This document shows, piece by piece, positions 12,138 to 51,676 of a stretch of 64,000 nt of DNA. Within the stretch, counting starts at the first letter, position 1. The number at the start of each line of letters is the position of its first letter. The DNA is taken from positions 3,493-67,492 of the forward strand of contig JAUYHF010000055.1 in assembly GCA_030690165.1 (NCBI GenBank), written 5' to 3'. The notes beneath the pieces are model-generated. The model was not told where the DNA came from. It was given only the letters and a program-made list of their open reading frames with translations, and did not search any database. A program made the translations under genes and the position numbers. The DNA comes from Deltaproteobacteria bacterium. Lineage in GTDB: Bacteria; Desulfobacterota; GWC2-55-46; UBA9637.

Positions 12138-12754
12138 GGATGGTTTCAAAAGACTTTACTCCCTCTTGTGCCGCCCTGATCATTGTAGATGTTCAAAACG
12201 ATTTTTGCCCGGGTGGTGCGCTGCCTGTTACAGATGGAGATAAGGTGATCCCTATCTTAAATGTCTATATCAAGAGGTTCCGGGAAGAGGGGGCTCCGGT
12301 CTTTGCAACAAGGGATTGGCATCCTAATGACCATAACTCTTTTAAGGAGAATGGCGGGATCTGGCCCCCCCACTGTGTTCAGGGGACAAGCGGGGCAGAA
12401 TTTCATCAAGGTCTTGACCTGTCAGGAGATGTTGAGATTGTATCAAAAGGCGCAGGCCCGAAGGATGAGGCCTATTCAGGTTTTCAGGGAACAAATCTCA
12501 CAGCAGAATTGAAAAAGAGAGAAATTAAGACGCTATATATCGGGGGCCTTGCCACAGACTATTGTGTGAAACATACCGTTCTGGATGCCCTTAAGGAGGG
12601 ATTTTCAGTCTTCTTCCTTGAGGATGGGTCAAGGGGTGTGGATGTAAATCCCGGTGACAGCAAAAAGGCGATAGATGATATGATATCGGCAGGCGCAAAG
12701 AGGATTGTTTTCTCAAATCTCTCTAAAAAGATACTGGAGGGGAAAAGTATATGA
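12134..12754 (+). CDS. pncA: Nicotinamidase / isochorismatase-family hydrolase
   Basis: ALIIVDVQNDFCPGGAL catalytic Asp region, isochorismatase fold; adjacent to NAPRTase gene. Confidence 0.75.
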   Translation: MRMVSKDFTPSCAALIIVDVQNDFCPGGALPVTDGDKVIPILNVYIKRFREEGAPVFATRDWHPNDHNSFKENGGIWPPHCVQGTSGAEFHQGLDLSGDVEIVSKGAGPKDEAYSGFQGTNLTAELKKREIKTLYIGGLATDYCVKHTVLDALKEGFSVFFLEDGSRGVDVNPGDSKKAIDDMISAGAKRIVFSNLSKKILEGKSI

Positions 12755-29756: not shown

Positions 29757-29966
29757 CTAAGACAAAATCAGATAGGCTATAACAAAACCGAGTATCACCA
29801 TAGTCTCAGGTATAGCCACCAGGATAATAATAACGCCGCCCAACTCAGGCTTTTCTGCCACGGCGCCGGCGCCGGCAGAACCGATTCTACTCTGGGCCCA
29901 CGCAGTTGCCAGCGCAGGGATTGCTATAGCCATGGCCGCAGCCAACGCAATAAGACCTTTTTCCAT
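29757..29966 (-). CDS. atpK: A/V-type ATP synthase proteolipid subunit K
   Basis: 69-aa two-helix hairpin with conserved Glu (AIPETMVILGFVIAYLIL). Confidence 0.75.
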   Translation of the reverse strand: MEKGLIALAAAMAIAIPALATAWAQSRIGSAGAGAVAEKPELGGVIIILVAIPETMVILGFVIAYLILS

Positions 29967-29990
29967 AAAACACCTCCATTATTAAAGTTT

Positions 29991-30078
29991 CAGAGTGTCA
30001 AAGCGTCATAGAGTCAAAGTTTTTTCTCCGCCTTTTCTCTGATACTCTGATACTATGACTCTCTGATACTTTGACTCT
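29991..30078. repeat. Octanucleotide-tandem hairpin element copy A (CTYTGAYA units, inverted arms)
   Basis: Left arm CAGAGTGTCAAAGCGTCATAGAGTCAAAG (3 inverted octamers), spacer, right arm CTCTGATA CTCTGATA CTATGACT CTCTGATA CTTTGACT; abuts atpI stop codon. Confidence 0.8.
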
Positions 30079-31967
30079 TATTTATGTTTTCTGAACGGTT
30101 CATATCTCCTTCCGCCTGTCTCGTAAAACTTGCTGAAAAATTCCACATAATGAAGCCTCAATGAATGCATGGTCGGGCCGAGAACGCCGAGGAATATGTT
30201 TATGGTGTGGATTATACCTGCGATAAGAATGCCGAGGATTATATTGCCTGCCAATCCGCCCAGTTTATTCGCCACAATGGCCAATACGACCGACGCCGTT
30301 CCTATAGCCATGATACGGGCATATGAAAGGATATTGCCGAGCGCCTTTATTACCTCCAATGGCCCAATGATCCCTTCAAGCAGTATAAGGATAACTAAGG
30401 CCGCTGTCATAACTGCTGCGCCTGGGGTCATTAATCCCTTCGGCAGATATTTTGCCAAAACTGCAAGTATAATAAGAAAGGCAAGCATCAATATTAATGC
30501 AGATGCCTTTGCCGCAGCCTGTCTGGCCTTGCCCCTGTGGATATAATTCGTTATTGCAAGCAAAAAACCAAGGATTACATGACCTAACCCTATTCCAATT
30601 GCCAGTATTAAAAAGACCTTTAATGCCTTTAATCTGTCAAAGATTATGGGATGTAAAATGCCGAGCCTTTCTCCCAGATCGCCGAAAAACTCCCCAAAGA
30701 GCGCCCCAAAAACAATTGCAAAAACACTGGATATTGTAAAGACAGAGGCAAGATTAGTGATAAAATCCCGCTCCTTAAATCTCCTTTTCATATAAATGCT
30801 GACAACGAAAAGTATGCTGCCATAGCCGATGTCGCCTAACATAAGGCCGAAAAAAGTCGGAAAGAACAGCGCAAGATAGGGTGTCGGGTCTATTGAGCCG
30901 TATTTGGGCGGCGGCAGGATATTGATAAAGACCTCAAACGGCCTTAAAAATTTCGGATTCTTTATATAAACAGGTATCAAATCCACCTCGTCTTCTCTTA
31001 CCCCCATCTCCCGAACCATAACCTTGTCCCCGAATTTCTCTCTAACAGCATTGGAAAGCGTATTGTATTCATCCTTTGGAATCCATCCTGCAATGACAAA
31101 CGCAAATCTCGTATGGCCGCAGTATGCAAGAACCTTGAATTCATCAAGGGTGCTCAGCAAGAACTCCATGAGACCTTCAAGTTTTTTATACCATTCCTCT
31201 GATAACTCCTTAAATTTATTGTCAATATCTCTTATGAGAAGCGGTATCTCTTCTCTCCTCTTTATCATATTTTTGAGCGCATCAAAGAGTGTCATGTCAA
31301 CATATCTGTGCGGGAGCTTTATCTCTGATATGGCCTCGGTGGAAATAAGCGCCTTTACTCTCGTATCATATTGCCGCGGATAGGTAATAACAATGCCTAT
31401 TATATCTTTATCTATATCCTTTACAAAGAACTGATACCTTGTTTCTGTAATGCGGTTTATCTCATTTTCGAACAAAGGTATAATATCTTCTTTGGCCAGC
31501 TCAATGGTAATGCCGATCGTCTCAAAATTATTGAGCCCCTTTAATTTTGCCACAAGCGGCGCAATGCCTTTTAATATTTTTTCATATCGCGCAATAGATG
31601 AAATCTCCTCTGTAAGCTCCGCCTTTTCAGCATGGAGCCCCTTGACCTCCTTTTCCAATCCATCTACTTCATGCAGAAAGGCATCGGATGCAATGTCGGC
31701 AATTACGAACCCATCTCCTCTTTCAACCCCGGATGCAGGAAGAAGGAGATATATCCCCTTCAATCTATCCGCTATCCTCTCAAGCCTTTCCTTAAGCAAA
31801 GCCTTTTCCTTCTCAACAGGCATCCTCCTCATATATGAATCTTCAAAGGCAATCCTTGCGGGCATGCTCTCTATATGAACAATGCCAAGGTTATGAAGCA
31901 GTCTTATAACCTCATCCAGCATGCCCTTTGAGCCGATAAGCTGCACCTTGCTCATTGCCTTTATCAT
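30078..31967 (-). CDS. atpI: A/V-type ATP synthase subunit I (a)
   Basis: 629 aa, N-terminal soluble plus C-terminal multi-TM domain with conserved Arg. Confidence 0.8.
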   Translation of the reverse strand: MIKAMSKVQLIGSKGMLDEVIRLLHNLGIVHIESMPARIAFEDSYMRRMPVEKEKALLKERLERIADRLKGIYLLLPASGVERGDGFVIADIASDAFLHEVDGLEKEVKGLHAEKAELTEEISSIARYEKILKGIAPLVAKLKGLNNFETIGITIELAKEDIIPLFENEINRITETRYQFFVKDIDKDIIGIVITYPRQYDTRVKALISTEAISEIKLPHRYVDMTLFDALKNMIKRREEIPLLIRDIDNKFKELSEEWYKKLEGLMEFLLSTLDEFKVLAYCGHTRFAFVIAGWIPKDEYNTLSNAVREKFGDKVMVREMGVREDEVDLIPVYIKNPKFLRPFEVFINILPPPKYGSIDPTPYLALFFPTFFGLMLGDIGYGSILFVVSIYMKRRFKERDFITNLASVFTISSVFAIVFGALFGEFFGDLGERLGILHPIIFDRLKALKVFLILAIGIGLGHVILGFLLAITNYIHRGKARQAAAKASALILMLAFLIILAVLAKYLPKGLMTPGAAVMTAALVILILLEGIIGPLEVIKALGNILSYARIMAIGTASVVLAIVANKLGGLAGNIILGILIAGIIHTINIFLGVLGPTMHSLRLHYVEFFSKFYETGGRRYEPFRKHK

Positions 31968-32287
31968 TTATATCCCTCTATTACATAACGCACCACCATA
32001 TCAACAGCCTTTCCTTCTCTCTCCTCTGCCGGCTTCTTTAAATCCTGAGCCTTTTTAAAAGCATCTTGCTTTATCGTCTCGGCCTCTTTATCAATCTTCG
32101 CCATTTCCTGTTTTTTATAATCTTCCAGAGCAGTATCAAGTTCTTTTAACATTGACAGCCTTATCTCATCTGCCTTGATAAGGGCGTTTTTTTTAATATG
32201 TGCGGCCTTTCCCCTTGCCTCATTTAAAAGATTATCAAGCTCCTCTTCTTTTTGCTTTAAAGATTCTATGACATCAAATTCATTCAT
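31964..32287 (-). CDS. A/V-type ATP synthase subunit H/G-like (first gene of operon)
   Basis: 107-aa charged coiled coil, 4-bp overlap with atpI. Confidence 0.5.
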
Positions 32288-32465
32288 TATCTTTGCCCTC
32301 TTCCATATCTTCTTCCCCTTCCTCGGCTTTCACAGAATATTTTCCATCTGCCCACTTGCCGAGGTCAATCAAACTGCACCTTTCTGAACAGAACGGCCTA
32401 TAGGAATTGCCTTCCCACACAGCATCCTTTTTGCATACAGGACATTTGATTTTTTTCTCTGTCAT
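32280..32465 (-). CDS. yacG: DNA gyrase inhibitor YacG (zinc-binding)
   Basis: CPVCKK...[17 protein letters not shown] matches YacG zinc-finger. Confidence 0.7.
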
Positions 32466-33554
32466 TTGTTTAAAAGATACGCCTCTATAAACTCATCTAT
32501 CTTTCCATCAAGCACTGCGTCTACATTGCCTGTTTCCACACCTGTTCTATGGTCTTTTATCAAACGGTACGGCTGCAATACATAGGAGCGGATCTGACTT
32601 CCCCATGTAATCTCCTTTTTCCCTTTGTGAAACTCCTGCATCTTTTCTTCCTGTTCTTTTAATTTTAATTCATAAATCCTTGACCTCAGTATCTTCATGG
32701 CCAGTTCCCTATTTTTATGCTGGCTCCGCTCGGCCTGACACGCAACGATTATACCAGTCGGAATATGGCTTATCCGCACTGCTGTCTCCACTTTATTTAC
32801 ATTCTGGCCGCCTGCGCCGCCTGACCTGAAAGTATCTATCTTTAGGTCTGCTTCTTTCACATCAACCTCAATATCGTCTTCAATCTCAGGATAGACAAAC
32901 ACGGATGCAAACGACGTGTGCCTTCTCTGATTTGCATCAAATGGCGATATTCTGACAAGACGGTGCACGCCAACCTCTGCCTTTAGATAGCCGTAGGCAT
33001 ACTCACCCTCTACAGTCAATGTAACGCTCTTTATGCCTGCTTCTTCTCCGGGCTGATAATCGACCACAGTAACGTTATATCTCTTTTTCTCAGCCCATCG
33101 GGTATACATCCTGAAGAGTATCTCTGCCCAGTCCTGCGCCTCTGTGCCGCCCGCGCCAGGATGGATGGAGAGGATGGCGCTCAGTTTGTCATGCTCTCCG
33201 CCAAGCATCCTCTGGATATCCAATTGATGTATGTAGTTTTCAGTATCGGATAATTTCGCCTCCGCCTCTTTTGCGGTTTCAGGGCTGTTCTCTGAATTGG
33301 CAAGTTCCAGCAGGATAGACGCATCTTCCAGACCTTTTTCAATATCGGCTACTGCTGCAATCTCTGCCTTGAGCGCTGCCTGCGTCTTGAGAAGGCTCTG
33401 CGCCTCTGAAGCCTTTTCCCATAAGGCAGGATTTGCTGCGGCCTTTTCTATCTCGCTTAATTTTTTACCCTTTGCATCCAGGTCAAAGATAACCCCGGAT
33501 TTCAATCAATTTATTCTGAAGCCCTTTCAGTCTTTCCTGAATCTCGTCAAACAT
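32462..33554 (-). CDS. prfB: Peptide chain release factor 2, programmed +1 frameshift
   Basis: ATG at 33554, 24 codons, then CTT TGA C shift site (+ strand 33482-33488) preceded by SD-like CGGGG; +1 frame continues into the SPF and GGQ domains. Confidence 0.9.
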
Positions 33555-33743
33555 TCAATCCTCCGCAAAATCATGATAATCATATTTTACACAGAAGATG
33601 AGACAAATCAAGTTGTTTATGGGCGTTTTTCTTTGCCTGCCCTCCTTTTCGTTTTCCAGTTAATCCATGTTTTCGGTTGCAATTCAGCAGGCCATGGAGT
33701 ACATTGTGCGGGCGCAACAAGTTGATAAAGAACGGGGTATTGC

Positions 33744-35639
33744 ATGGCATTAGTGAGTTTACAGAACGTCAAGGTCAGCTTCGGCGGGCCGCTCCTGCTC
33801 GAAGGAGTCGATCTCTCCATCGACCGCGGTGAGCGGGTCTGTCTGGTCGGACGGAACGGTACTGGCAAGTCCACGATCATGAAGCTCATCACCGGAGAGA
33901 TAAAGCCAGACGGCGGCAATATCGTGTTCCAGCAGGGCGTGCGCATCACGCTTCTGACGCAGGAGGTTCCCAATGCGCTTTTCGGCAGCGTGTTCAACGT
34001 GGTATCGAGCGCCTTCGGCGAGCAGGGGAAACTGCTTGCCGCTTATCATCACGTGAGCGCCAAACTGGCCCATGACCACAGCGAGAAGCTGATGTCCGAG
34101 CTCGAGGATGTGCAGCACAAATTCGAGGCAGCGGGCGGGTGGCAGATGCAGCAGCGCGTTGATGAGATACTGACGCGATTGCAGCTTCCCGAAGACGTTG
34201 AGTTCTCGGAACTTTCGGGCGGTCTCAAGCGACGTGTTCTGCTGGCCAGGGCATTGGCAGACGCACCGGACCTCTTGCTCCTCGACGAGCCAACGAACCA
34301 CCTGGATATAGATGCCATTGCCTGGCTCGAGGAATTTCTGCTCTCATTCGGCGGGACATTGCTCTTCGTGACCCACGACCGCATGCTGCTACAGAAGCTC
34401 GCAACACGGATCGTTGATCTCGACCGGGGCAGACTCACGAGCTGGCCCGGCAGTTACCAAACCTATATAGAGCTTAAACAGGCGGCGCTCGATGGAGAGG
34501 CTGTAGAGAATGCTAAGTTTGACAAGAAGCTTGCCGCTGAAGAGATCTGGATCCGCCAGGGTGTCAAGGCGCGCAGGACGCGCAATGAAGGCCGCGTGCG
34601 TGCGCTCATGGAACTGCGCAGAACAAGGAGCGATCGGCGAGAGTTGATTGGCGTGGCGCGCATGCAGACACAGGAAGCAGAACGCACAGGCAAGCTGGTT
34701 ATAGAGACGACTGGGGTAAGCCACAGCTACAACGGGAATGTGGTTATCCGCGATTTTTCAACGACCATCATCCGTGGGGACAAGATCGGTATAATCGGGC
34801 CGAACGGCTCGGGCAAGACCACGTTGCTCAAGATACTGCTTGGCGACCTGAAGCCGCAAAAGGGTACAGTGAAGCACGGCACGAACCTCGAAGTGGCCTA
34901 TCTCGACCAGCACCGTGGACAGCTTGATGATGCAAAGACCGTTCAGGATAATGTTGCGCACGGCAATGACCATGTGATCATTAACGGCAATAGGCGGCAT
35001 GTCATCGGCTACCTGCAAGATTTTCTGTTCGCGCCTGCCCGTGCCCGCAGTCCCGTGAATGTTCTATCCGGCGGAGAGCGGAACCGTCTGTTGCTCGCGA
35101 AGCTCTTTACCCAGCCGTCGAACGTGCTTGTGCTCGATGAGCCCACGAACGACTTGGATATCGAGACACTCGATCTGCTCGAGGAGCTCTTGATGGATTA
35201 CCCCGGTACGGTGCTGCTCGTGAGCCACGACCGCGCGTTCATCAACGATGTCGTCACCAGCACTCTCGTGTTAGAGGGCAATGGCAGGGTGAGTGAATAT
35301 GTCGGAGGATATGACGACTGGCTTCGCCAGAAACAGCCGATGAATGTGGTCCATGCTGTCCCGTCAAAGGTTGAGGTTAAAAATGTGGAGCCGAGTCCTC
35401 AAAAAAAGAACCCGCGCAAACTGAGCTTTAAAGAGCAGAAAGAGCTTGATACTCTGCCGAAGCGTATTGAAGATCTTGATGCGGAGCAGCGGCAGATCCT
35501 GGCGACCATGGCTGATCCGGTCTTTTATCGGGAGAGCGGCAAAAAGGTCACTGTGTATAAGGCACGGCATGAAGTGTTGGAAAAAGAACTTGCCGAGGCG
35601 TATAAGCGGTGGGATGAACTGGAGGCAGTGAAGGGTTAA
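33744..35639 (+). CDS. uup: ABC-F family ATPase, Uup-like (two ABC domains, C-terminal coiled coil)
   Basis: Two Walker A motifs (GRNGTGKST, GPNGSGKTT), two LSGG signatures; GC content visibly higher than flanks. Confidence 0.85.
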   Translation: MALVSLQNVKVSFGGPLLLEGVDLSIDRGERVCLVGRNGTGKSTIMKLITGEIKPDGGNIVFQQGVRITLLTQEVPNALFGSVFNVVSSAFGEQGKLLAAYHHVSAKLAHDHSEKLMSELEDVQHKFEAAGGWQMQQRVDEILTRLQLPEDVEFSELSGGLKRRVLLARALADAPDLLLLDEPTNHLDIDAIAWLEEFLLSFGGTLLFVTHDRMLLQKLATRIVDLDRGRLTSWPGSYQTYIELKQAALDGEAVENAKFDKKLAAEEIWIRQGVKARRTRNEGRVRALMELRRTRSDRRELIGVARMQTQEAERTGKLVIETTGVSHSYNGNVVIRDFSTTIIRGDKIGIIGPNGSGKTTLLKILLGDLKPQKGTVKHGTNLEVAYLDQHRGQLDDAKTVQDNVAHGNDHVIINGNRRHVIGYLQDFLFAPARARSPVNVLSGGERNRLLLAKLFTQPSNVLVLDEPTNDLDIETLDLLEELLMDYPGTVLLVSHDRAFINDVVTSTLVLEGNGRVSEYVGGYDDWLRQKQPMNVVHAVPSKVEVKNVEPSPQKKNPRKLSFKEQKELDTLPKRIEDLDAEQRQILATMADPVFYRESGKKVTVYKARHEVLEKELAEAYKRWDELEAVKG

Positions 35640-35678
35640 AATTGATAGCATGGTCTGGGCCTCTTGCAAAATACATTG

Positions 35679-37235
35679 TCATTTTCTTTTTCTCTTCACA
35701 ACCAACAAGCAAAAACCAACAACAAACAGGAAGCACCCAATTGCAAATATATCACCATATCTTGAATAAAATGTAAACAGGCGCGCATCTCTTAATTTTA
35801 CTTCATCGCCTATTGTTTCCCTTGTAAAAATGCCGCTTTGCGCCCTAACCCTGCCAATAGGGTCAATCACGCCGCTTATGCCTGTATTGGCCGACCTTAT
35901 CAAAAAAACCTTATTTTCCACAGCACGAAAGATTGCCTGAGAAAAATGTTGATAAGGCGCGGATGTCTTGCCGAACCATGCGTCGTTGGTGATGTTGATT
36001 AAAAAACCGGCGCCATCTTTTATAAAACCTCTTGCAAGTTCCGGAAATATTGATTCAAAACATATCAGGACGCCAAAACTATTACCTTCAAATTCAAGCG
36101 GCTCAAGCCATTTACCCGGAGTAAAATCACCCACGCCAACAACAAGTTTATGGATAAATGGTAGATATTTTTTAAGCGGCACATATTCACCGAAAGGCAC
36201 AAGGTGGATCTTATCATATTTTCCAATGATTTCACCCTCTGGCGATATGAGAAATGCGCTGTTGTAATATTTTACCTCCCCGCCAAAACCTGGTCCATAC
36301 GCAGGGCTGCCGGTAAGTAGATAGGTATTGGTTTGTTTTGGCACGTTAAATATCTCCATCCCCAAATCTTTATCAGACTGAAGGTAGAATGGAACCGCTG
36401 TTTCCGGCCAGATTATCAGCCTTACGCCTTGCTTCGCCGTATCAAGGCTTAAATTTCTATAAATATCCACTGTTTGTTTTTGAAAAGAGGCGTCCCATTT
36501 CCTGCCCTGGTCAATATTGCCCTGGACAATGGCAATCCTGAGGGTTTTCCAATGCTCAGAAACTTTGTCTATTTCAGAAATTCTGAAAAGGCCGTATATT
36601 AAAACCACCATCAGAATAATAAAAACAAGAAGCCCCTCTTTAACAGGCAGCCTCTTTTCTTTTCCAATCCAGTACGACAGCGCAAAAAAGATTACCGCGT
36701 TGACCATGACTATTAAAAAAGATATTCCATATACGCCTGTAATATCCGCTATCTGAATCAACGGGAGAAAGGTAGACTGAGAATAACCGAGGAGAGCCCA
36801 CGGAAAGCCGAATGTAATCATGTTGCCCCGCAGGTATTCCAGCGCCACCCACAATGATGGGGCAAACAGGATTGTGAGCATTGGGCTCATGCTGACTGAT
36901 GACATCGCCGCCATGCCAAGCCCAAACATGCCAAAGAAGAGACTTAGATACAAGGCAAGGAGCATGAGAATCAGCACTCCGGTAAAGAATGGAATGCCTC
37001 CGTAACTGACCATTGAGTTGACAACCCAATAGATTGTTCCCAGGAAAAAAATAAATCCCCACAGAAGGCCGAGAAAAAAACCGCTTTTCTTATTATTGCC
37101 GTCCAATGCAAAAAAGAACGACGTCATACCGATCCACGCCAGAAATTCCAGATCAATGGGCGGGAATGCGGCAGCAAGCGCTATTGCCGAAAGTAAGGTT
37201 AAAAAAATATTACGCCACATTTTATTTTGATACAA
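35679..37235 (-). CDS. lnt: Apolipoprotein N-acyltransferase
   Basis: N-terminal multi-TM plus C-terminal CN-hydrolase domain, 518 aa. Confidence 0.85.
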   Translation of the reverse strand: MYQNKMWRNIFLTLLSAIALAAAFPPIDLEFLAWIGMTSFFFALDGNNKKSGFFLGLLWGFIFFLGTIYWVVNSMVSYGGIPFFTGVLILMLLALYLSLFFGMFGLGMAAMSSVSMSPMLTILFAPSLWVALEYLRGNMITFGFPWALLGYSQSTFLPLIQIADITGVYGISFLIVMVNAVIFFALSYWIGKEKRLPVKEGLLVFIILMVVLIYGLFRISEIDKVSEHWKTLRIAIVQGNIDQGRKWDASFQKQTVDIYRNLSLDTAKQGVRLIIWPETAVPFYLQSDKDLGMEIFNVPKQTNTYLLTGSPAYGPGFGGEVKYYNSAFLISPEGEIIGKYDKIHLVPFGEYVPLKKYLPFIHKLVVGVGDFTPGKWLEPLEFEGNSFGVLICFESIFPELARGFIKDGAGFLINITNDAWFGKTSAPYQHFSQAIFRAVENKVFLIRSANTGISGVIDPIGRVRAQSGIFTRETIGDEVKLRDARLFTFYSRYGDIFAIGCFLFVVGFCLLVVKRKRK

Positions 37236-37995
37236 AAGAAAAGATATAGAAGATAAAAAAGGTCACACCTGTTCCAAGAAGGGCGCCGAGTAGTATCTCA
37301 AATTTTGTGTGTATGCCTCCCACGAGACGGCTGTGGCTCACCATTAGCGCCATAACAAAGGTGAGAACCGTTACAACAGGGTCAAGCGTCAGGAGAACAA
37401 CAGCAGCCCAGATGGAAAAGGCAACAGCAGAATGACCGCTCGGCATACCACCGTGAAGCGGAGCGCCCTTTCCCAAATATGCCTTTGATACAACAACATT
37501 TATAAGCACAACAAGCAGCGACACAACGGCAATATGGACTTTAAACGCGCTGCCGGTTCGCAATACCTGAGAAAACGGGATGGTCAAATATTTGGAAAAA
37601 ATAATATAACCCATAATAAACACGCCAATGGATGATATTAAAACAGCTCCTGCTGAAACATCCTTGGCTATCTTTGCCAGCGCATGATATTTTTTGCCGC
37701 AGACAATATCTACCGCAGTTTCAATGGCGGTGTTTACCATCTCTGCAAATAACAATATTACAATGGAGAGCGAAAGAAGCGCAAACTCGGCTGCGGGAAG
37801 ATTTAAGATAAGGCTTAAAAAGAGAGATGCCGCTGCTGCAGCAAAGAAGTACCTTATATGCCTCTGATGTCTTACTGCATATATGACGCCCTCTATGGCG
37901 CAATTGAGGCTTTCAAAAATATTTTTTGGTTTTACGAGTTCTTTATCTTCTTCCAATTTATAATCTCCAGATATATTACATTTTACAATCTGCAC
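37222..37995 (-). CDS. dgkA: Diacylglycerol kinase (DgkA) fused to PAP2 phosphatase domain
   Basis: N-terminal DgkA fold (NCAIEGVIYAVRHQRHIRYF, EMVNTAIETAVD); C-terminal PAP2 motifs KxxxxxxRP-like, PSGHS, SRLVGGIH. Confidence 0.7.
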   Translation of the reverse strand: MQIVKCNISGDYKLEEDKELVKPKNIFESLNCAIEGVIYAVRHQRHIRYFFAAAAASLFLSLILNLPAAEFALLSLSIVILLFAEMVNTAIETAVDIVCGKKYHALAKIAKDVSAGAVLISSIGVFIMGYIIFSKYLTIPFSQVLRTGSAFKVHIAVVSLLVVLINVVVSKAYLGKGAPLHGGMPSGHSAVAFSIWAAVVLLTLDPVVTVLTFVMALMVSHSRLVGGIHTKFEILLGALLGTGVTFFIFYIFSFVSK

Positions 37996-38435
37996 TTTGC
38001 AATCTTCATTAGTCTCTTCTCCTCTTTCTTCATCCTCAAAGCCTCTTTGCGTCCTTTTTCGTGGTCAAAACCCAATAGATGAAGTATGCCGTGAATCAAA
38101 AGCCTTGCCATCTCTTGATTCAGAGTTACGCCATTTTCTTTCGCCTGTGTTTTTGCAGTTTCTACTGATATGACAACATCGCCCAAAATGAGTTGGGAGT
38201 TGGGAGTTCGGGGTTCGGAGTTAAAATCCCACATGGGAAACGAAAGCACATCCGTAGACTTATCCTTTTTTAAATAACGTTTATTCAGTTTCTGAATGCC
38301 GGCATTGTCAGTCAGGAGTACGCTCAACTCCGCATTGTCACGGCAGCCCAAATCTTTTAATACCTCTCTTGCCAGCCTCTTTATCTCCTTTATCCCAGCC
38401 CCCGCCTTCTGCTCTTTTTGTATCAATACCTTCAA
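37983..38435 (-). CDS. ybeY: rRNA maturation endoribonuclease YbeY
   Basis: HGILHLLGFDHE zinc motif. Confidence 0.85.
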   Translation of the reverse strand: MKVLIQKEQKAGAGIKEIKRLAREVLKDLGCRDNAELSVLLTDNAGIQKLNKRYLKKDKSTDVLSFPMWDFNSEPRTPNSQLILGDVVISVETAKTQAKENGVTLNQEMARLLIHGILHLLGFDHEKGRKEALRMKKEEKRLMKIAKCRL

Positions 38436-40053
38436 TAACTCCCCCTTGATATATAAAATCTGTTCTTTCCGGATATTCTATTCTCTGATGGAACATGCCG
38501 ATGAGCGCCCTTTTAAAATTCCTTGCAATGGCATTAATGTCTTTTACTGTTAATTCGCATTCGTCTAATTGGCCGTCCATAAATACCCTGTTTATTATCC
38601 TTTGAACCATAGCCTGAATATTTGCCGATGTCGGGTCAGGGATGGTCTTGGATGCGGCCTCCACCACATCGGCCAGCATCACCAGACCTGCCTCCTTGCT
38701 TCTCGGTTTAGGTCCTGGGTACCGAAAATCCTTTTCGTCAACCTCGTAGATATTTATACCCTCCTTAGCCTTTGCCTTCTGATAAAAATAGCTTATGAGA
38801 GATGTGCCGTGGTGCTGCCGGATTATCTCTGTAATCTCCTCTCCAAGCCTGTGATCGTTTGCAAGCTCTACGCCTTCGGTTACATGCGATATAAGTATCC
38901 TGGCGCTCACCTCGGGCGCAAGACTGTCGTGTTTATTTTCACCCCGCATATTCTCAATAAAATATAATGGGTTTTTTACCTTGCCGATATCATGATAATA
39001 GGCGCTTACCTTTGCCAGAAGAGGATTGGCATTCACTGCCTCTGCTGCCGCCTCCACCATGCTCCCTATAATAATTGAATGGTGATACGTGCCAGGGGCA
39101 TGGAGCGCAAGTTCCTTTAACAGCGGGTGGTCCATCCTTGCCAGTTCAAGATGCCTTATATTGGTTGTGTATCCGAATACAATCTCAAATACAGGCGCCA
39201 CGCCTGTAACTATCACTGATGTTATCTGGCCGCCAATGAATCCAAAGAGGATTGTAATGACACCTTCTGTTAATGACCAGTTGCCTTTGAGAATGATAAA
39301 ACTTGCAATGACAAGCACATTTATACAACCCAGGATAAGACCTGCCTTTGTTATGGTAGCCCTTTGCGTGGCATGGCGGACAGCTTTGGCCGCTGCAATT
39401 CCGCCGATAAAAAAATATGCCGCAAGACCCAGGCTGCCTTCTAAAAACACGCCTGATATCAGACTTATTACTGCGGCAAAAATCAGCGCGGTCTCTGAAT
39501 TCAGGAAAAGCCGGACAAGCATCGGCCCTGCGGCTGCCGGCAGGAGATACAGATACGGATGAAATGGTATGACAGGAAATGCTGTTTCAATGGACTTTGC
39601 AATAAATAACGAAAGCCTGACAAGCGTGAGAATGGTTATCAGTATAACACCCATGAGGAGGATGTCCTTGGGTGATGACGCAAATTTTCTTATATTCCGC
39701 GCAGAAAAGGTGTAGGCGGTGTAAAAAAGAATTATGCTAAAAAGAAAGACGCCAACGGTAGAAATTAAAAAACCTTTGCCGTAAGAGGCATCCTGCACCG
39801 CCTTCAGTTTTTTAACCGCATCTTCTGTAATCCTGTCCCCTCCCCTTACAACAATCTCCCCCTTTTTTATATCTGTCCCCTCCAATGTGATATCATGGTC
39901 AGCCATAACATCTATGACCGCAATATCACCGGCCTTGTAGGAATAACCAAAAAGCGAAATGTTTGTAGAAAATAAAAGAGCCACAATGCCGCTAATTAGA
40001 ACAGCAGTGGCCCATCTCTGAAAAACAGGGGATTTTATTGATGCTGTGTGCAT
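38338..40053 (-). CDS. pgpH: 7TM-HD membrane phosphohydrolase (PgpH/YqfF family, c-di-AMP phosphodiesterase-like)
   Basis: N-terminal TM plus extracytoplasmic domain, 7TM bundle, cytoplasmic HD domain (HHSIIIGSMVE, YYHDIGK); operon phoH-pgpH-ybeY-dgkA. Confidence 0.8.
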   Translation of the reverse strand: MHTASIKSPVFQRWATAVLISGIVALLFSTNISLFGYSYKAGDIAVIDVMADHDITLEGTDIKKGEIVVRGGDRITEDAVKKLKAVQDASYGKGFLISTVGVFLFSIILFYTAYTFSARNIRKFASSPKDILLMGVILITILTLVRLSLFIAKSIETAFPVIPFHPYLYLLPAAAGPMLVRLFLNSETALIFAAVISLISGVFLEGSLGLAAYFFIGGIAAAKAVRHATQRATITKAGLILGCINVLVIASFIILKGNWSLTEGVITILFGFIGGQITSVIVTGVAPVFEIVFGYTTNIRHLELARMDHPLLKELALHAPGTYHHSIIIGSMVEAAAEAVNANPLLAKVSAYYHDIGKVKNPLYFIENMRGENKHDSLAPEVSARILISHVTEGVELANDHRLGEEITEIIRQHHGTSLISYFYQKAKAKEGINIYEVDEKDFRYPGPKPRSKEAGLVMLADVVEAASKTIPDPTSANIQAMVQRIINRVFMDGQLDECELTVKDINAIARNFKRALIGMFHQRIEYPERTDFIYQGGVIEGIDTKRAEGGGWDKGDKEAGKRGIKRFGLP

Positions 40054-40111
40054 AACTAAAAATAGGTTGAGGTTGAGTAATTACTATGTTGAGTTTTTCT
40101 TAACCTTAACC

Positions 40112-41110
40112 TTATGTCTCCTCTTTCTTCCTCCCCCTTCCCTCGTATGCCTTAATTATCTCCTTAACCAGCGGGTGCCTCACCACATCCTTCTCGGTAA
40201 AATATGAAAACCCTATGCCTTCAATGCCCTGCAATACCTTCTGGGCATCTACAAGGCCGGACGGCTTTGCAAGGGGGAGGTCTATCTGAGTTATGTCTCC
40301 TGTTATAACTGCCTTTGAGCTGAACCCAAGCCGCGTCAAAAACATCTTCATCTGCTCGGATGTAGTGTTCTGGGCCTCATCCATGATTACAAAAGAATCA
40401 TTGAGCGTCCTGCCGCGCATAAATGCGAGCGGGGCAACCTCTATCATCCCCCTCTCTATGAGTTTTTCCGCCCTTTCAAAATCAATCATATCGTGAAGCG
40501 CATCGTAGAGAGGTCTCAGATATGGGTCAACCTTTGCAGCCAGATCGCCCGGCAAAAATCCGAGTTTTTCTCCTGCCTCTACAGCGGGTCTGGTGAGTAT
40601 TATCCTGTCCACCTCTTTTTTCGACAGCGCAGCCACTGCCATCGCCATCGCCAGATATGTCTTGCCTGTCCCTGCCGGTCCTATGCCAAAAACAATATCG
40701 TATTTTCTTATCATATCTATATACTTTTTCTGCGCAGGACTCTTTGGCGAAATAATCTTTTTCTTAAATGATATATAGACAGTATCGGTGAATATATCGG
40801 CAAGGTGGACTTCTCTATCCGTCTCAATCGCCCTTATGGCGTAGTCTATATCAGTTGGATGAAGGGCATAGCCCTTTTGGAGCAGTTCGCACAGTTCTTT
40901 TAAAAGCCTTTCTGCCAGTTGAACCCTTTGACCCTCGCCGTGGACTACAATAAGATTTCCTCTTGTATCAAGCTTTACCCCAAGTTTTTTCTCCAGACGC
41001 TTCAGATTTTCACCTGTCTCGCCGAACAGAGAAGCGGCAATAGCATTATCCTCTATCGTAATGTGCTTAAAGATTTTTTCTTCTATGTTCAACAAGGCCT
41101 GACTCCTCAA
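40112..41110 (-). CDS. ybeZ: PhoH-like ATPase (YbeZ)
   Basis: Walker A GPAGTGKT; TTG start. Confidence 0.85.
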
Positions 41111-41121
41111 AAAAATAGCAT

Positions 41122-41197
41122 CACAGAGTCAGAGGGTCATAGTGTCAAAGTCTTTTCTCATACTCTGACACTTTGACTCTTTGATACTTTGACTCTT
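41122..41197. repeat. Octanucleotide-tandem hairpin element copy B
   Basis: CACAGAGTCAGAGGGTCATAGTGTCAAAG ... CTCTGACA CTTTGACT CTTTGATA CTTTGACT; abuts stop codon of GH57 gene. Confidence 0.8.
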
Positions 41198-41198
41198 G

Positions 41199-42932
41199 TT
41201 ATTTAAACTCCAGCTCTTTAAACCATGCAATATCAATGTCAGGAAAAAGGTCATCCCTTTTCTGGCACATATCAAGAAAAATTTTATCGCTATTTGAAAT
41301 ATCCTTTCCTTCGCCTTTATCCCTTGCCAACCCGGCAAGCCTTTTAAAATCCTCGTAATGCCTTACAATCCTTGCCTCTGCGTAATCCTTTGCAGAAAAG
41401 GTGCTTATAAGAAACTGCCAATCAGAGGCCTCAAGTATGAGAAGCTCTCTGGCAGCCTGTTTAAGAATATCCTGCAGCAGGTTGTCTTCTTTTTTGTTGC
41501 CGTATTGCCTTGCGATTTTTATCATCTCTTCCTCTGCCTCGTAGATATGCTTCCATGTCCACTGGTTAGTGTCATTGAGCCATATCCAGTGATAGCCTCC
41601 CTCTCCCCACGAACCTTCAGGCAGTGATATGACCTCTGTTGGTCTTTGCCTGTCAAGATATTCGCCTGCAGTTACCATGTCTATACTTCCATCAAGATGA
41701 ACGGCCTTTATTACGCTGTAAAGCCATTCAGGCCCTTCAAACCACCAGTGGCCAAATAATTCCGCATCATATGGAGATACAACAATGCCGGGCTCATTTT
41801 GAGCCTTGAGATACTCAGATAGATTTACCTTTATAAGTTCTTTAAAATGCTCAGCCTGCTCTGATGTTCTCGCGTAAGCAATTTCAGGCACATATCTTTC
41901 TTTATCCGCAAGGTCTGCCTTTGCGCTGGTAACCCTCCAGTATTTCATGCCGCCAGGAAATCGCTTTTTATGAAAATCAAGGTAATTGCCATCCCCCGGA
42001 TAGCCCCACTCCCCGCTCCAAACCTGAAGGCCGGTCTTTGGATCTCTTGTAAAAACAGCCACAGGCATTTTTCCCTCTGCCGCGGAACCAACCCAATAGG
42101 CCTTATAAGGCGTCTTCTCTGCAGCCTCAGGCAGCGGCTTATACTGTTCAGAAAATCTTGCCCAGAGATTTTGCAGGGCCTCAAATCTGTCAAGATAGAC
42201 GCCTATTGCCTTTCCGCCCTTTAACAGGTGCGCATCTATAAAGAAATACTCAATATGATTCTCGCTTAAAAATTCTTCCACACCCTTTCTGCTATAAGCC
42301 TCCACTTTGACGCCTGTATCAACCGGCGGCGACCATTTATAACCCGGCCTGTAGGCGCACTCCGGCAGCCATATACCCCGGGGCTGTTTTCCAAAATGTC
42401 TTTTATACGACGATACCCCTTGTTTGACCTGCGCCTGTATGCTTATATCCTGTGAAAGGAGCGGAAAATATCCGTGGGTTGCCCCGCAGGTGATTATCTC
42501 TATATGCCCCTCTCTCTGCATATCTGCAAAAGCCTTTACAATATTCTGTTCATATTTTTCCATGAAATCCTTGTATATGTTCCGGTAAAAGTCTTTCCAC
42601 ATCCTGGCGAGCTTTGCGAAATCAGCCTGGCCAAGGGCCTCAAACTCCTCTATATCTTTACCTGCCGCTTCCAATTTCTGGCCAAGGTATGTCTTAAACT
42701 CTGATTTAAAGGACTGATTTACAAGCATCTCTGTTAAAACAGGCGTAAGCCCAAGGGTCACCTTCGGGCTAATTCCCTCTGCAATTAAACGGTTAAAGAC
42801 GTTCAAAAGCGGTATATATGTCTCTGCCGCCGCCTCATTCAGCCAGTCTGTTCCGTGAGGCCATCTGCCGTGCGATAGAACATAAGGAAGGTGGGAATGT
42901 AAAACAAAGGTAAATGAACCAATCTTTTCCAT
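41199..42932 (-). CDS. GH57 family 1,4-alpha-glucan branching enzyme
   Basis: N-terminal FVLHSHLPY GH57 signature, 577 aa. Confidence 0.8.
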   Translation of the reverse strand: MEKIGSFTFVLHSHLPYVLSHGRWPHGTDWLNEAAAETYIPLLNVFNRLIAEGISPKVTLGLTPVLTEMLVNQSFKSEFKTYLGQKLEAAGKDIEEFEALGQADFAKLARMWKDFYRNIYKDFMEKYEQNIVKAFADMQREGHIEIITCGATHGYFPLLSQDISIQAQVKQGVSSYKRHFGKQPRGIWLPECAYRPGYKWSPPVDTGVKVEAYSRKGVEEFLSENHIEYFFIDAHLLKGGKAIGVYLDRFEALQNLWARFSEQYKPLPEAAEKTPYKAYWVGSAAEGKMPVAVFTRDPKTGLQVWSGEWGYPGDGNYLDFHKKRFPGGMKYWRVTSAKADLADKERYVPEIAYARTSEQAEHFKELIKVNLSEYLKAQNEPGIVVSPYDAELFGHWWFEGPEWLYSVIKAVHLDGSIDMVTAGEYLDRQRPTEVISLPEGSWGEGGYHWIWLNDTNQWTWKHIYEAEEEMIKIARQYGNKKEDNLLQDILKQAARELLILEASDWQFLISTFSAKDYAEARIVRHYEDFKRLAGLARDKGEGKDISNSDKIFLDMCQKRDDLFPDIDIAWFKELEFK

Positions 42933-43030
42933 AAGCCTCCTATGAATAAAAGGGTCGAGAACCCTCTAACCCTTATCCATTTTATGTTATTTTGATTTCT
43001 ATCATAAGGCTGCGCCTTTTGCAATTTCAA

Positions 43031-45817: not shown

Positions 45818-45841
45818 CCATCCTACGAAACTCCTTACTGC

Positions 45842-46528
45842 TTACTGTCTTTTAATAATTCCCTCAAAAATCCCTCTCCCATCCTCTCCCCCAAGGATTG
45901 ATTCACAAACCCTTTCAGGGTGAGGCATAGCTCCGAAGACATTTCCTTTTTCGTTGATTATGGCTGCAATATTATTGACTGAGCCGTTTGGGTTGATATT
46001 CTCTGTAATTCGGCCGTCCTGAGTAGAATATCTGAAAATTATCTGGTTATTATCCTCCAGCCTTTTGATAGCGTCTTTATCCGCAAAATAATTTCCGTCA
46101 GCATGGGCAATAGGGATGTTTAATATCTGGTTTTTCTGATATGTATTTGTAAACATGGTCTGGTTATTCTCTACCTTTACATAAACATTCTGGCAGATGA
46201 ACTTAAGGCTCCTGTTTCTCATCAAGACCCCCGGCAAAAGCCCTGCCTCTGTTAATATCTGAAAACCATTACATATGCCTATAACACGACCGCCTTTATT
46301 TGCAAAACGAATCACCTCATTCATTACCGGTGAAAATCTGGCAATAGCTCCGGTCCGTAAATAGTCTCCATATGAAAATCCGCCTGGCAGGATAATACAG
46401 TCAAACCCTTTGAGGCTTGTATCCTTATGCCAGATATATTCAGCCTCCTGGCCCATAACATGCTTGGCCGCATGATAGCAGTCGTGGTCGCAGTTTGAGC
46501 CTGGGAATACGATTATGCCAAATCTCAT
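45842..46528 (-). CDS. purQ: Phosphoribosylformylglycinamidine synthase, glutaminase subunit
   Basis: Class-I GATase triad (GICNGFQ, His-Pro-Glu). Confidence 0.85.
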
Positions 46529-46782
46529 TCTATCTCTACCCTGTAGTCTTCAACAACAGTATTTGCCAGAAGTTTTTCGCACATTTCCTTAAGGCTTTTT
46601 TCCGCATCTTGTTTAGATGAGGTGTCAAGCTCAACTTCAATAAACTTGCCTATTCTTAAACCCTTGACCTCACTGTATCCCATAGATGCAAGGGCATCGC
46701 CCACAGCCTTTCCCTGCGGGTCAAGCACGCCTTTTTTTAATGTCACAAAAACCTTTGCCTTCATAAAATCTCTATCTTTCAT
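46525..46782 (-). CDS. purS: Phosphoribosylformylglycinamidine synthase subunit PurS
   Basis: 85 aa, overlaps purQ by 4 bp. Confidence 0.8.
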
Positions 46783-48100
46783 AGACTACCCTTCCTGCAA
46801 CTATTGTCTTTACAGCCTTCCCTTTCATTTTCCACCCGTCAAACGGCGTATTCCTGCTCTTTGATTTTAATTCTTTGGCATCCACAATCCACTCCTTGTT
46901 CAAGTCAACAATTGCTATATCAGCATCGGCCCCGACTTTTAATTGCCCCTTGCTGTCAAGCCCAAACAGTTTTGCCGGATTTGCGGATAATTTTGCAATC
47001 AATTCCGACAATGTTAAAACATTATCGGAAACAAGCCTTAAACACAGAGGCAGGGCTGTTTCCAGACCGATAATCCCGTTTGCCGCCTTATCAAACTCAA
47101 CATCCTTTTCATCAAGCGTTTGCGGTGCATGGTCGGTTGCAATCGCATCTATTGTTCCATCCTCAAGCCCTCTTTTTATTGCATCAATATCTTGCATGGT
47201 TCTAAGCGGTGGGTTCATCTTTGTATTTGTATTATAGCCTATAACAGCCTCATCCGTCAGGGTAAAATGATGCGGCGTAACCTCTGCCGTAATATTTAAT
47301 CCTCTTTGTTTTGCATTTCTTACAAGCGCAACAGATCCTTTTGTGCTTATATGGGCAATATGCAATCTTCCTTCTGTAAGCTCCGCCAGTGCAATGTCTC
47401 TTGCCGCCATAATATCCTCTGCTGCATCGGGAATGCCTTTAAGTCCGAGTTTTGTTGACACAAAACCTTCATTCATAACGCCATCCCCTGCAAGACCTGT
47501 GTCTTCGCAGTGGCTTATTACCAATAAGTTAAACTGCTTTGCATATTCCATTGCCAGTCTCATAAGCCCGCTGTTTGCAACAGGCCTTCCGTCATCAGAT
47601 ATTGCAACGCATCCTGAATCTTTTAATTCTCCTATCTCTGCAAGGGTTTCACCTTTCAGTCCTTTGCTTATTGCGCCAATGGGAAGAACATTTATAACAC
47701 CTTCTTCCATTGCCTTTTTAAGTATATACCGTGTAACCGATGTATTATCATTTACCGGGTTTGTATTTGCCATGCACGCAATTGAGGTAAATCCGCCTGC
47801 TGCTGCCGCCATTGTGCCTGTCCTGATGGTCTCCTTATATTCATAACCAGGTTCCCGCAGATGCGTATGCATATCAATAAAACCCGGGCAGACAAGTAGT
47901 CCAGAGGCATCAATGGTTCGGAGTCCAGTGTCAGAGTCTTTAACCCTTTGCCCCTTTGACACTTTGACTCTTTGACCTTCTATTCTGATTTCTTTTATCT
48001 TTTCCCCCTCAATCAATACATCCCCTATCCCATCAACCCCATTTGCAGGGTCTATCACCCTTCCGCCTTTGATTAAGAACTTATTCACGGCTGCCTCCAA
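46772..48100 (-). CDS. pyrC: Dihydroorotase, carrying an in-frame repeat-element insertion near the N-terminus
   Basis: [13 protein letters not shown] metal-binding motif; insertion encodes [19 protein letters not shown]. Confidence 0.85.
47926..47977. repeat. Octanucleotide-tandem hairpin element copy C, inside pyrC coding sequence
   Basis: CAGTGTCAGAGTCTTT ... CTTTGACA CTTTGACT CTTTGACC; same family as 29991-30078 and 41122-41197. Confidence 0.75.
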
Positions 48101-50779: not shown

Positions 50780-50911
50780 CCATATAACTTAATAATCTCA
50801 TCCAACATAAGATATGGCTTTATTAATCCGCAATTTGTATCAATTTGTTTTTTCACGTTCACATTGATTTTATCACAGAGAGTTAATATATTTTACATAG
50901 GAGGAAATATT

Positions 50912-51676
50912 ATGAAGAGATTTTTACTTTTTATGACAATCGCTATCCTGTTTACTGTTTGGGGATGCAGTAAAAAAGTCGTGACATCAGAGACAGCCGT
51001 TGGACAGATACCAAAGAAAGAGGCAGCCCAGACAGAGGCGGTCAAGGAGAAAGAAACCGCCGCAGTTACCGCGCCTGTTGAGGCTCCATCCATAACACCA
51101 GAAGCCGTGAAACAAGAGGAAGCTGTTACAGAGGAGAAAGAAGCCGCCGCAGTTGCCGCGCCTGTTGAAGTTCCATCCATAATACCAGAAACCGTGAAAT
51201 CAAAGGAAGCTGCTATAGAGGAGAAAGAAACTGCCGCAGTTACTGCGCCTGTTGAGGCTCCATCCATAATACCAGAAGCCGTGAAATCAAAGGAAGCTGC
51301 TATAGAGGAGAAAGAAACTGCCGCAGTTACTGCGCCTGTTGAGGTATTAAAGCTGCAGGACATATTCTTTGATTTCGACAGGTTCCTTATCAGGGAAGAG
51401 GCCAGGCCGGTTCTTGAGACAAATGCGGATTACTTGAAAGCCAATAAGGATTCTAAAATTCTTATTGAAGGCCACTGTGATGAAAGGGGAACCTCGGAAT
51501 ACAATATGGCCCTTGGCGAGAGAAGGGCGCAGTCTGCAAAAAAATACCTTATTGATCTGGGTATAGACCCATCGAGGATATCCACTATAAGTTACGGTAA
51601 AGAAAAGCCATTCTGCACAGACCACAACGAGGGATGCTGGCAAGAAAACAGAAGGGCGCATTTTACCATAAAGTAA
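50912..51676 (+). CDS. OmpA/Pal-family lipoprotein with ~29-aa tandem repeats in linker
   Basis: RBS GGAGG, lipobox LFTVWGC; four 87-nt repeats (ETAAVTAPVEAPSIIPEAVKSKEAAIEEK) between 51046 and 51340; C-terminal OmpA-like peptidoglycan-binding domain. Confidence 0.8.
   Translation: MKRFLLFMTIAILFTVWGCSKKVVTSETAVGQIPKKEAAQTEAVKEKETAAVTAPVEAPSITPEAVKQEEAVTEEKEAAAVAAPVEVPSIIPETVKSKEAAIEEKETAAVTAPVEAPSIIPEAVKSKEAAIEEKETAAVTAPVEVLKLQDIFFDFDRFLIREEARPVLETNADYLKANKDSKILIEGHCDERGTSEYNMALGERRAQSAKKYLIDLGIDPSRISTISYGKEKPFCTDHNEGCWQENRRAHFTIK

Follow-up and report, generated by a model that had tools for sequence, protein, structure and literature searches.

The protein family PF05635 corresponds to the open reading frame (ORF) of the large intervening sequences (IVSs) of 23S rRNA, and this S23p ORF has been known since the early 1990s. 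Cyanobacteria contain dispersed intergenic arrays of tandem 7-nt units, the short tandemly repeated repetitive (STRR) sequences. The Coxiella IVS, 428 nt long, is bounded by terminal inverted repeats that pair into a 28-bp stem; it contains the S23p ORF, and RNase III excises it. Upstream of the ORF are three or four tandem heptamers (GACAGAT), the number depending on the strain (PMC4990558). An older idea cited in the same paper regards the IVS as a mobile element, with the ORF assisting its mobility. The PF05635 domain has been described as functionally uncharacterised (bioRxiv 10.1101/2024.02.27.582315) and resembles Avd of diversity-generating retroelements (PMC10053308). PF05635 genes were also found in cas operons, where the sites include the one between cmr3 and cmr2 (PMC3936711). 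In Geobacter metallireducens, Aklujkar et al. (2009) described multi-copy paired sites on opposite strands (classes 1-3), composed of 3-5 tandem 7-9-nt units and located, for example, between proB and proA; the sites were guessed to bind integration host factor (IHF) or HU (PMC2700814). Here we describe a family of inverted tandem octamers with the unit CTYTGAYN. Three copies (A, B and C) are present in a 64-kb stretch of a Deltaproteobacteria bacterium (contig JAUYHF010000055.1, positions 3,493 to 67,492; hereafter the window), and in other genomes arms of the same kind bracket PF05635 genes.

The general plan of the element on the plus strand is (NRTCARAG)n, a short A/T-rich spacer (12-17 nt in copies A and B), then (CTYTGAYN)n. 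All genes concerned are encoded by the minus strand. Copies A and B have 4-5 tandem octamers in each arm and occupy the spacer between the stop codon of the upstream gene and the ribosome-binding site of the downstream gene. In sense orientation the elements start at 30078 (A) and 41198 (B), 0-4 nt past TAA, where the initial annotation had placed a hairpin directly at the upstream stop codon, and they end about 10-20 nt ahead of the GGAGG ribosome-binding site. In the left arm of copy A (29980-30019) the minus-strand units TGTCAAAG CGTCATAG AGTCAAAG are well formed and the two outer units are degenerate. The 3′ arm of copy B is followed, in sense, by GCTATTTTTTT and then by a GAGGAG ribosome-binding site. 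Copy C is located in frame, in minus-strand reading, within a variable loop of a dihydroorotase ORF.

Tandem Repeats Finder reported period 8 (and also 16) at copies A and B. A two-unit pattern with up to two mismatches gave 26 matches in the window, compared with 5.5 ± 2.5 in shuffled sequences, and none of 100 shuffles reached 26. The 26 matches were concentrated at three sites within the 64 kb, which are copies A, B and C. The similarity between A and B, which the initial annotation had noticed, was confirmed: the two share the octamer architecture and the period. Pattern searches also revealed copy C, not mentioned in that annotation, and many further copies in other genomes. That A, B and C are members of one CTYTGAYN inverted-octamer family can be stated with high confidence.

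The distribution of the family was assessed with a pattern of four tandem units in a set containing one genome per species, and 120 matches were listed. The inverted architecture was present at 48 of the 120 listed loci, corresponding to at least 58 elements; the remaining listed loci were mostly plain long tandem arrays. Among the matches listed, the metagenome-assembled genomes (MAGs) with paired loci carry the labels Nitrospinota, Nitrospirae/Thermodesulfovibrionales, Deltaproteobacteria, Thermodesulfobacteriota, Omnitrophota, Planctomycetia, Acidobacteria and others. About 90% of these elements lie between co-oriented genes, typically 0-10 nt past the upstream stop codon, and few (3 of about 50) are found at convergent gene ends. 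The same element occurs between unrelated gene pairs and within coding regions. The proposal that the hairpins belong to a dispersed family of imperfect palindromes abutting stop codons, comparable to repetitive extragenic palindromic (REP) sequences or miniature inverted-repeat transposable elements (MITEs), was thus borne out both in the window and in many genomes.

The sites have a characteristic structure. In 41 co-oriented intergenic cases the two bases preceding the first full unit were A (39/41) and G (38/41), those succeeding the last unit were C (30/41) and T (37/41), and GGAGG was found at +10 to +16 beyond the last unit. The distance from the last unit to the next start codon is just 15-30 nt. 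Comparison of 443 units showed 95-99% conservation at positions 1, 2, 4, 5 and 6 (C, T, T, G, A); position 3 is T, C or A, position 7 is C or T, and position 8 can be any base, preferentially A. As the first unit base, T accounts for 52%, A for 23%, C for 14% and G for 11%. Arms comprise 2-8 tandem octamers. CGTC was frequent in a few genomes only (L058, L096; L numbers denote loci or contigs).

In viral contigs the pattern gave 35 matches, nearly all of them plain tandem arrays; paired arms were found only in L137. This viral-classified contig (IMGVR_UViG_3300032163_001657) contains one paired octamer element and three more arrays of the CTYTGAYN family. It could be a vehicle by which the family spreads, or host sequence wrongly classified as viral.

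An autonomous copy encoding a transposase was sought by looking for arms farther apart than a loop. No such copy was found between distant arms among the loci; the only gene recurring between the arms was PF05635. In L114 a 124-codon ORF situated exactly between octamer arms was identified as PF05635 (23S_rRNA_IVP, E=8.4e-36). The order of elements in L087 is upstream TAA, left arm, ribosome-binding site, PF05635 ORF, right arm and next gene, and the TGA stop codon of the ORF is part of the first unit of the right arm. A PF05635 gene is also located between arms of the CTGTGACN unit in L024, and in a Haloflavibacter isolate (L053) the gene has inverted tandem heptamer flanks. More octamer-clade members were obtained through exact protein look-up. 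All nine octamer-clade proteins tested were bracketed by octamer-family arms, and in four the TGA stop coincides with the first unit of the downstream arm. CTYTGAYN arms surround the gene in L114, L087, L160-162, L250, L251 and L253, and the Desantisbacteria set (L244-249) has the variant unit GTTGAYAC. One of these cassettes (L250) is located between carA and carB in MAG JASEHP01, which is the source of the hairpin loci L001, L019, L025, L061 and L111; another octamer-clade member is found in an Omnitrophota MAG, between argS and miaA. The named octamer-clade proteins come from Desantisbacteria, Thermodesulfovibrionales and Omnitrophota, taxa in which the hairpins are also found.

The generality of this arrangement was assessed in an unselected set of 80 metagenome PF05635 loci (L160-L239; 76 scored) chosen by the protein alone. 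For each locus 200 nt of upstream sequence was aligned to the reverse complement of 200 nt of downstream sequence, and 106 displaced pairs served as controls. The median inverted-flank score was 35, compared with 17 for the controls, and scores of at least 40 were obtained for 26/76 loci and 0/106 controls. The matched flanks were almost always tandem repeats. Among 118 clear flank arrays the period was 7 in 99, 8 in 18 and 6 in one, with a median of 4.3 units per arm. A stop codon was contained in the downstream-arm unit in 45/59 cases and in the upstream-arm unit in 25/59. The cassette had the same orientation as both neighbouring host genes in 28/40 cases.

The repeat unit and the protein diverge together. 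In the unselected set, only the three proteins nearest to the L114 protein (59-65% identity) had CTYTGAYN flanks. Protein identity dropped with increasing distance between flank units (0.62, 0.59, 0.53, 0.47, 0.46) and was 0.43 if the period differed, a trend reached by none of 1000 permutations. Finished plasmids of Nostoc punctiforme and Calothrix contain genes annotated as 'four helix bundle' or 'S23 ribosomal protein' between inverted GGGTGTR / YACACCC heptamers, directly past an integrase stop codon; the architecture thus does not stem from faulty assembly. These three plasmid loci suggest that STRR sequences, too, may be linked to PF05635 cassettes. The PF05635 relatives in the PDB, 2gsc and 2rld, have five chains each. 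In the literature searched, which left most subscription journals outside its coverage, we found no description of the CTYTGAYN family (the octamer string returned unrelated primer matches only) and no paper linking short tandem repeats to PF05635 genes in general.

On this evidence copies A, B and C are probably gene-less, MITE-like derivatives of an IVS-type PF05635 cassette with inverted octamer arms. The architecture, the distribution over several phyla, the polymorphism, the existence of forms with and without the gene and the co-divergence of unit and protein are direct observations. Having spacers of 17 nt (A) and 12 nt (B) and no PF05635 ORF, the window copies are gene-less relatives and not full members of the cassette class.

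The proposed mechanism is as follows. The family would settle in two types of site: in operons, the spacers between stop codon and ribosome-binding site, and in coding regions, permissive loops, where the arrays are in TGA-free orientation. Once settled, the arms would lengthen or shorten by 8-nt slippage. The PF05635 protein, a pentamer to judge from its structural relatives, may recognise the tandem units, roughly one per subunit. It would be needed for spread or maintenance of the cassette, and gene-less copies could be served in trans. By analogy with the rRNA IVSs, the copies are probably co-transcribed with the operon. The same analogy raises the tentative possibility, for us a little short of an even chance, that RNase III cleaves the long imperfect stem and so separates the flanking cistrons. 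The intercistronic position might be tolerated if the stem brings the stop codon near the next ribosome-binding site and the second arm offers TGA in three frames. Any effect on atpI and atpK expression would be a by-product and not the reason for the element.

Comparison of related sequences revealed variation at two levels. Two contigs from other samples (L156, L157) have an atpI-atpK spacer identical to that of the window, except that L157 is one octamer short in the 5′ arm. In a relative with proteins about 85% identical and the same gene order pyrR-pyrB-pyrC-purS-purQ-x-GH57-phoH-HD-ybeY (L158), the GH57-phoH spacer is 35 nt long and lacks copy B. The dihydroorotase loop of L158 is shorter and unrelated, without copy C, as are the loops of P0002 and P0003, and no 7-8-mer arrays were found in 13.5 kb of this syntenic sequence. 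Two different loci of one MAG (L025:560 and L111:3638) have the loop and inner units in common. At L042:3170-3362 and L106:4297-4481, which belong to two different 'Deltaproteobacteria' MAGs, octamer arms surround a near-identical A/T-rich palindromic module of about 120 nt; the flanks are unrelated and have no common direct repeat. In L023 four identical units are found in one arm only, and the arms evolve independently. Loops or linkers encoded by purC, murB, a cobQ-like gene and a transglutaminase gene also contain in-frame arrays. These coding-region arrays are always in the TGA-free orientation, and the other arm is missing or truncated. Taken together, unit polymorphism, absence from the relative, common internal sequence and coding-region arrays indicate copying between sites combined with slippage, and not purely local growth.

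The purC orthologues of L001 (2341-2372) and L034 (889-962) carry an array in the same loop, with 4 and about 9.5 units, respectively. Arrays of unequal length in the same loop mean either that the array is old or that the loop is a recurrent hotspot. The dihydroorotase loop (window 47880-47990; proteins P0005-P0028) shows lineage-specific insertions such as ...PPLEKGGRGDL... or ...GVEGSRGRGVEEKLEPLNPRTLEP...; the second of these types (P0027, ...GVEGARGRGGKGKLEPLNPGTLEP...) derives from a further array of inverted tandem octamers (AAGGGGTCGAGGGGGC / CTTGAACC) at L159:5783-5858. On this 13-kb JGI (Joint Genome Institute) contig there are five or more arrays of inverted tandem 7- or 8-mers with differing units, some of them within carB; several repeat families seem to have colonised its genome heavily.

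RNA folding predicted a stable hairpin for both intergenic copies, in agreement with the initial annotation, and it did so on both strands: −29.4 kcal/mol (z −3.2) in sense and −31.9 kcal/mol (z −5.4) in antisense for copy A, −32.3 (z −4.5) and −36.1 (z −6.4), respectively, for copy B. An Rfam scan of the window at gathering thresholds detected three tRNAs only, with no rRNA and no family at the copies, and an E-value scan of 29900-48100 gave no match at A, B or C. Whether the hairpin itself is under selection was analysed with 32 elements in mRNA orientation, using three inner units per arm and, as control, 3′ arms shuffled among the elements. Standard pairs accounted for 80.6% of arm positions compared with 81.1 ± 0.7% after shuffling, and the covariation score was 0.099 compared with 0.109, i.e. 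there was no covariation. Pairing no better than in shuffled combinations indicates that complementarity follows from the presence of one motif in inverted orientation. The better-folding strand was sense in 29 and antisense in 24 elements (12 and 10, respectively, for differences over 5 kcal/mol). At unit position 3, sense orientation has 36 G.U and 36 A.C oppositions, and the wobble directions at positions 3 and 7 are uncorrelated. The uncorrelated wobbles and the lack of sense bias leave a single functional 'foldable strand' unsupported. Mirrored positions 3 form Watson-Crick pairs in 22% compared with 40% expected (z = −5), and the arms are asymmetric, one tending to have CTTTGA and the other CTCTGA or CTATGA (0/1000 in an arm-level test), independently of gene direction and of position 7. 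In summary, we found no evidence of selection on the mRNA hairpin.

These results bear on the possibility that the element is a selected regulatory RNA hairpin, which protects the upstream cistron or uncouples the cistrons and so tunes atpI against atpK. In E. coli, REP elements are known to confer stability on upstream mRNA, and both the stable folds and the exact placement between stop codon and ribosome-binding site in operons would suit such a function. The shuffle-level pairing, the equal performance of the two strands, the equal numbers of G.U and A.C and the avoidance of Watson-Crick pairing at mirrored position 3 do not; moreover, unrelated genes and coding regions also host the element, and it is missing from a relative whose gene order is the same. 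We consider regulation by the hairpin improbable, and the purpose-built role in mRNA stability or V-ATPase stoichiometry put forward in the initial annotation finds no support in unrelated gene pairs, coding sites and strand-neutral, shuffle-level pairing. An intrinsic terminator or attenuator within the operon is very improbable. A run of seven U follows copy B in sense, and long hairpins can pause RNA polymerase. Copy A, however, has no U-tract, a simple scan for intrinsic terminators called neither A nor B, the A/U-rich stems are interrupted, and convergent gene ends host only 3 of about 50 elements. Neither copy has the short G+C-rich stem followed directly by a U-tract that defines a rho-independent terminator, and this assignment was rejected.

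The arrays could alternatively be double-stranded DNA binding sites for a host global or nucleoid protein such as IHF or HU, with the pairing of the arms being incidental. This would explain why the motif is conserved and the pairing is not, and the G. metallireducens arrays were read in this way (PMC2700814). The sites are, however, intra-operonic or intragenic and not in promoter regions, a period of 8 bp does not match the helical phase, the arrays are missing from a close relative, and the unit co-diverges with the PF05635 gene, not with a universal host factor; we regard this explanation as slightly less probable still than the regulatory hairpin. Not far below it stands independent growth of microsatellites in situ, by slippage at each locus and quasi-palindrome correction creating the second arm, with no copying between loci. 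Such growth would account for the polymorphism in unit number, for the independently evolving arms of L023 and for the direct heptamer arrays in coding regions of the window. It is hard to reconcile with the same 7-base core at dozens of loci in several phyla, with loops and internal modules in common, and with arms that bracket one gene family whose sequence tracks the unit. Least credible of all is that an embedded motif is the active part, TTGACA as tandem −35 boxes or CUUUGAC as a +1 frameshift or stop site of release factor 2 (RF2) type. Both strings are contained in CTTTGACA, and TGA recurs in each of the three frames, 8 not being a multiple of 3. The promoter candidate was rejected: no promoter was called in A and none directed at atpK or phoH, the single promoter-scan match overlapping B (9-of-12, plus strand) points antisense into the GH57 gene, and the 15-30 nt before the next start codon leave no space for a −10 box and a leader. 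The RF2-type recoding site was likewise rejected as a post hoc resemblance, as ribosomes stop ahead of the arrays and half of the units are CTCTGAY, unfit for an RF2 site. Related cassettes, furthermore, use unrelated heptamers.

Several points weigh against derivation from a PF05635 cassette. A hidden Markov model built from cassette proteins found no PF05635 ORF in the 64-kb window. The loci examined showed neither a target-site duplication nor a clean empty-site junction, and nothing recognisable as a transposase was seen (no search aimed at Y1 transposases was made), so movement is deduced from distribution only. A clean empty site was not obtainable because L158, the nearest syntenic relative, is too diverged in the spacers. 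The stems contain a mismatch or wobble about every 8 bp and have no sense excess of G.U over A.C, the latter counting against selection for an mRNA hairpin. The derivation could also be reversed, the gene having been captured into pre-existing hairpins.

The features of the window and the arrays of the two contigs mentioned above are listed in Table 1.

Table 1. Positions of the octamer elements, their host genes and related arrays (window coordinates, except where a contig is named)
Feature	Position	Strand	Description
Copy A	29980-30078	minus-strand operon	Inverted tandem octamers (CTYTGAYN) in the atpI-like/atpK-like spacer
Copy A, 5′ arm (mRNA sense)	30037..30078	−	Abuts the atpI stop codon; plus strand CTCTGATA CTCTGATA CTATGACT CTCTGATA CTTTGACT at 30037-30076, then CT
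Copy A, spacer/loop	30020..30036	−	17 nt; plus strand TTTTTTCTCCGCCTTTT
Copy A, 3′ arm (mRNA sense)	29980..30019	−	CTTTGACT CTATGACG CTTTGACA, then degenerate CTCTGAAA CTTTAATA
Copy B	41119..41198	−	GH57/phoH spacer; sense begins CAAG
Copy B, 5′ arm	41163-41194	−	4 units
Copy B, loop	41151-41162	−	12 nt
Copy B, 3′ arm	41119-41150	−	4 units
Copy C	47920..47977	−	5 units on the plus strand (47938-47977) and a truncated inverted arm (47920-47937)
atpI-like gene	30078..31967	−	V-type ATPase subunit I; TAA 30078-30080; Pfam V_ATPase_I, E=1.1e-25; same call on L156
atpK-like gene	29757..29966	−	V-ATPase proteolipid, 69 aa; Pfam ATP-synt_C on L156/L157
atpK-like ribosome-binding site	29971-29977	−	GGAGGTG
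GH57 branching-enzyme-like gene	41199..42932	−	TAA 41199-41201; Pfam
phoH-like gene	40112..41095	−	Likely TTG start 41093-41095 by homology with L158; mechanical ORF list to 41110; Pfam
Dihydroorotase gene (pyrC), host of copy C	46772..48079	−	Pfam Amidohydro_1/DHOase
Arrays on L159 (examples)	2737-2805, 10390-10462, 10661-10728, 12683-12761		Inverted tandem 7- or 8-mer arrays
Arrays on L137	6430-6525, 8281-8320, 10007-10030, 11486-11509		CTYTGAYN family

The dihydroorotase encoded in the window is 100% identical to an NCBI entry, the dihydroorotase of 'MAG: Deltaproteobacteria bacterium'. Other tandem repeats were also noted in the window. Direct ATCACGC heptamers (about 4.7 units, no inverted partner) are located at 10221-10253 in an apparent guaA (GMP synthase) coding region, and direct GAGTTSG heptamers (about 4.7 units) at 38190-38222 in a ybeY-like ORF (37983..38435, minus strand), where they read ...NSEPRTPNSQL...; L158 has a different, longer sequence without an array at the ybeY-like loop. 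An 87-bp tandem repeat at 51045-51344 (3.4 copies, 92% matches), which encodes 29-residue repeats in an OmpA/Pal-like lipoprotein (ORF 50864..51676, plus strand), looks ordinary.

The hairpins are probably passengers and should therefore not be annotated as regulators of the ATPase operon. Derivation from PF05635 cassettes would tie together the 23S rRNA IVSs with their S23p/PF05635 ORF, the 'four helix bundle protein' genes found between unrelated genes (PMC3936711) and the inverted repeats of Geobacter and cyanobacteria. The co-divergence of unit and protein offers a testable hypothesis for the binding target of PF05635 and a handle on the spread of the elements. Peptides with a period of eight residues in housekeeping enzymes, and 8-nt length polymorphisms, are relevant to gene calling and strain typing in MAGs. 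More speculative, and in our estimate rather unlikely, is a general formulation in which PF05635 pentamers are sequence-specific partners of inverted tandem 7-8-nt repeats and form with them an unrecognised class of transposase-less mobile cassettes, located in operons, rRNA genes and protein loops and spawning gene-less hairpins. If true, it would explain the origin of the 23S rRNA IVSs, the function of S23p and the STRR and Geobacter repeats.

Among described elements, the REP sequences with their bacterial interspersed mosaic elements (BIMEs), and the REPINs (REP doublets forming hairpins) with their REP-associated tyrosine transposases (RAYTs), resemble the octamer family in being short, high-copy imperfect palindromes located between co-transcribed genes or at gene ends, without target-site duplication. 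In the REPIN-RAYT system, as here, the repeat co-evolves with one associated gene that is itself flanked by repeats. REP sequences and REPINs differ, however, in consisting of a single 20-40-nt palindrome with GTAG or CGTC and in having an HUH Y1 transposase as the associated gene, whereas the octamer elements have tandem arms and a four-helix-bundle protein; a single 20-40-nt imperfect palindrome with terminal GTAG or CGTC is not what the octamer elements contain. Like MITEs, they have inverted arms. Target-site duplication is absent, the flanking AG...CT being a continuation of the palindrome and not a direct duplication. A longer form with the same ends exists, but its gene, PF05635, is not a known transposase.

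Rickettsia palindromic elements insert in frame into protein-coding genes, and Correia and enterobacterial repetitive intergenic consensus (ERIC) elements are co-transcribed hairpins cleaved by RNase. All three differ from the octamer family in having no similarity of sequence or unit, no tandem 7-8-mers and no PF05635 gene. The TAACTGA heptamers of Beggiatoaceae, which provide stops in three frames, are abundant in intergenic regions, where they overlap upstream stop codons, and are known from distant lineages; some occur in ORFs in stop-free form (PMC4679880). Unlike the octamers, they are nearly all direct and located just upstream of start codons (169 direct sets and one inverted; PMC4679880).

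The window copies belong descriptively with the STRR-like and G. metallireducens-like repeats, i.e. dispersed tandem 7-9-nt units paired in inverted orientation. The cyanobacterial STRR sequences are likewise dispersed tandem arrays, but with period 7, other units and in other taxa. When compared by their published description, the G. metallireducens units (GTTGCTYN, TCTCCGTS[Y], MTYCTGA) differ from CTYTGAYN, and a link to PF05635 was not reported. With the 23S rRNA IVSs of Leptospira and Coxiella the family has in common a stem of terminal inverted repeats enclosing a PF05635 gene, the existence of short forms without the gene and a transcribed setting. The octamer copies differ in being located between cistrons or within coding regions, and not in helix 25 or 45. 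The window copies are also unlike the large IVSs in having no ORF and arms consisting wholly of tandem octamers, and RNase III cleavage has been shown for the rRNA IVSs only. The locus gives access to a class of PF05635 cassettes that are bounded by repeats and span several phyla, and to the gene-less forms derived from them, palindromic elements that are both IVS-like and REP-like.

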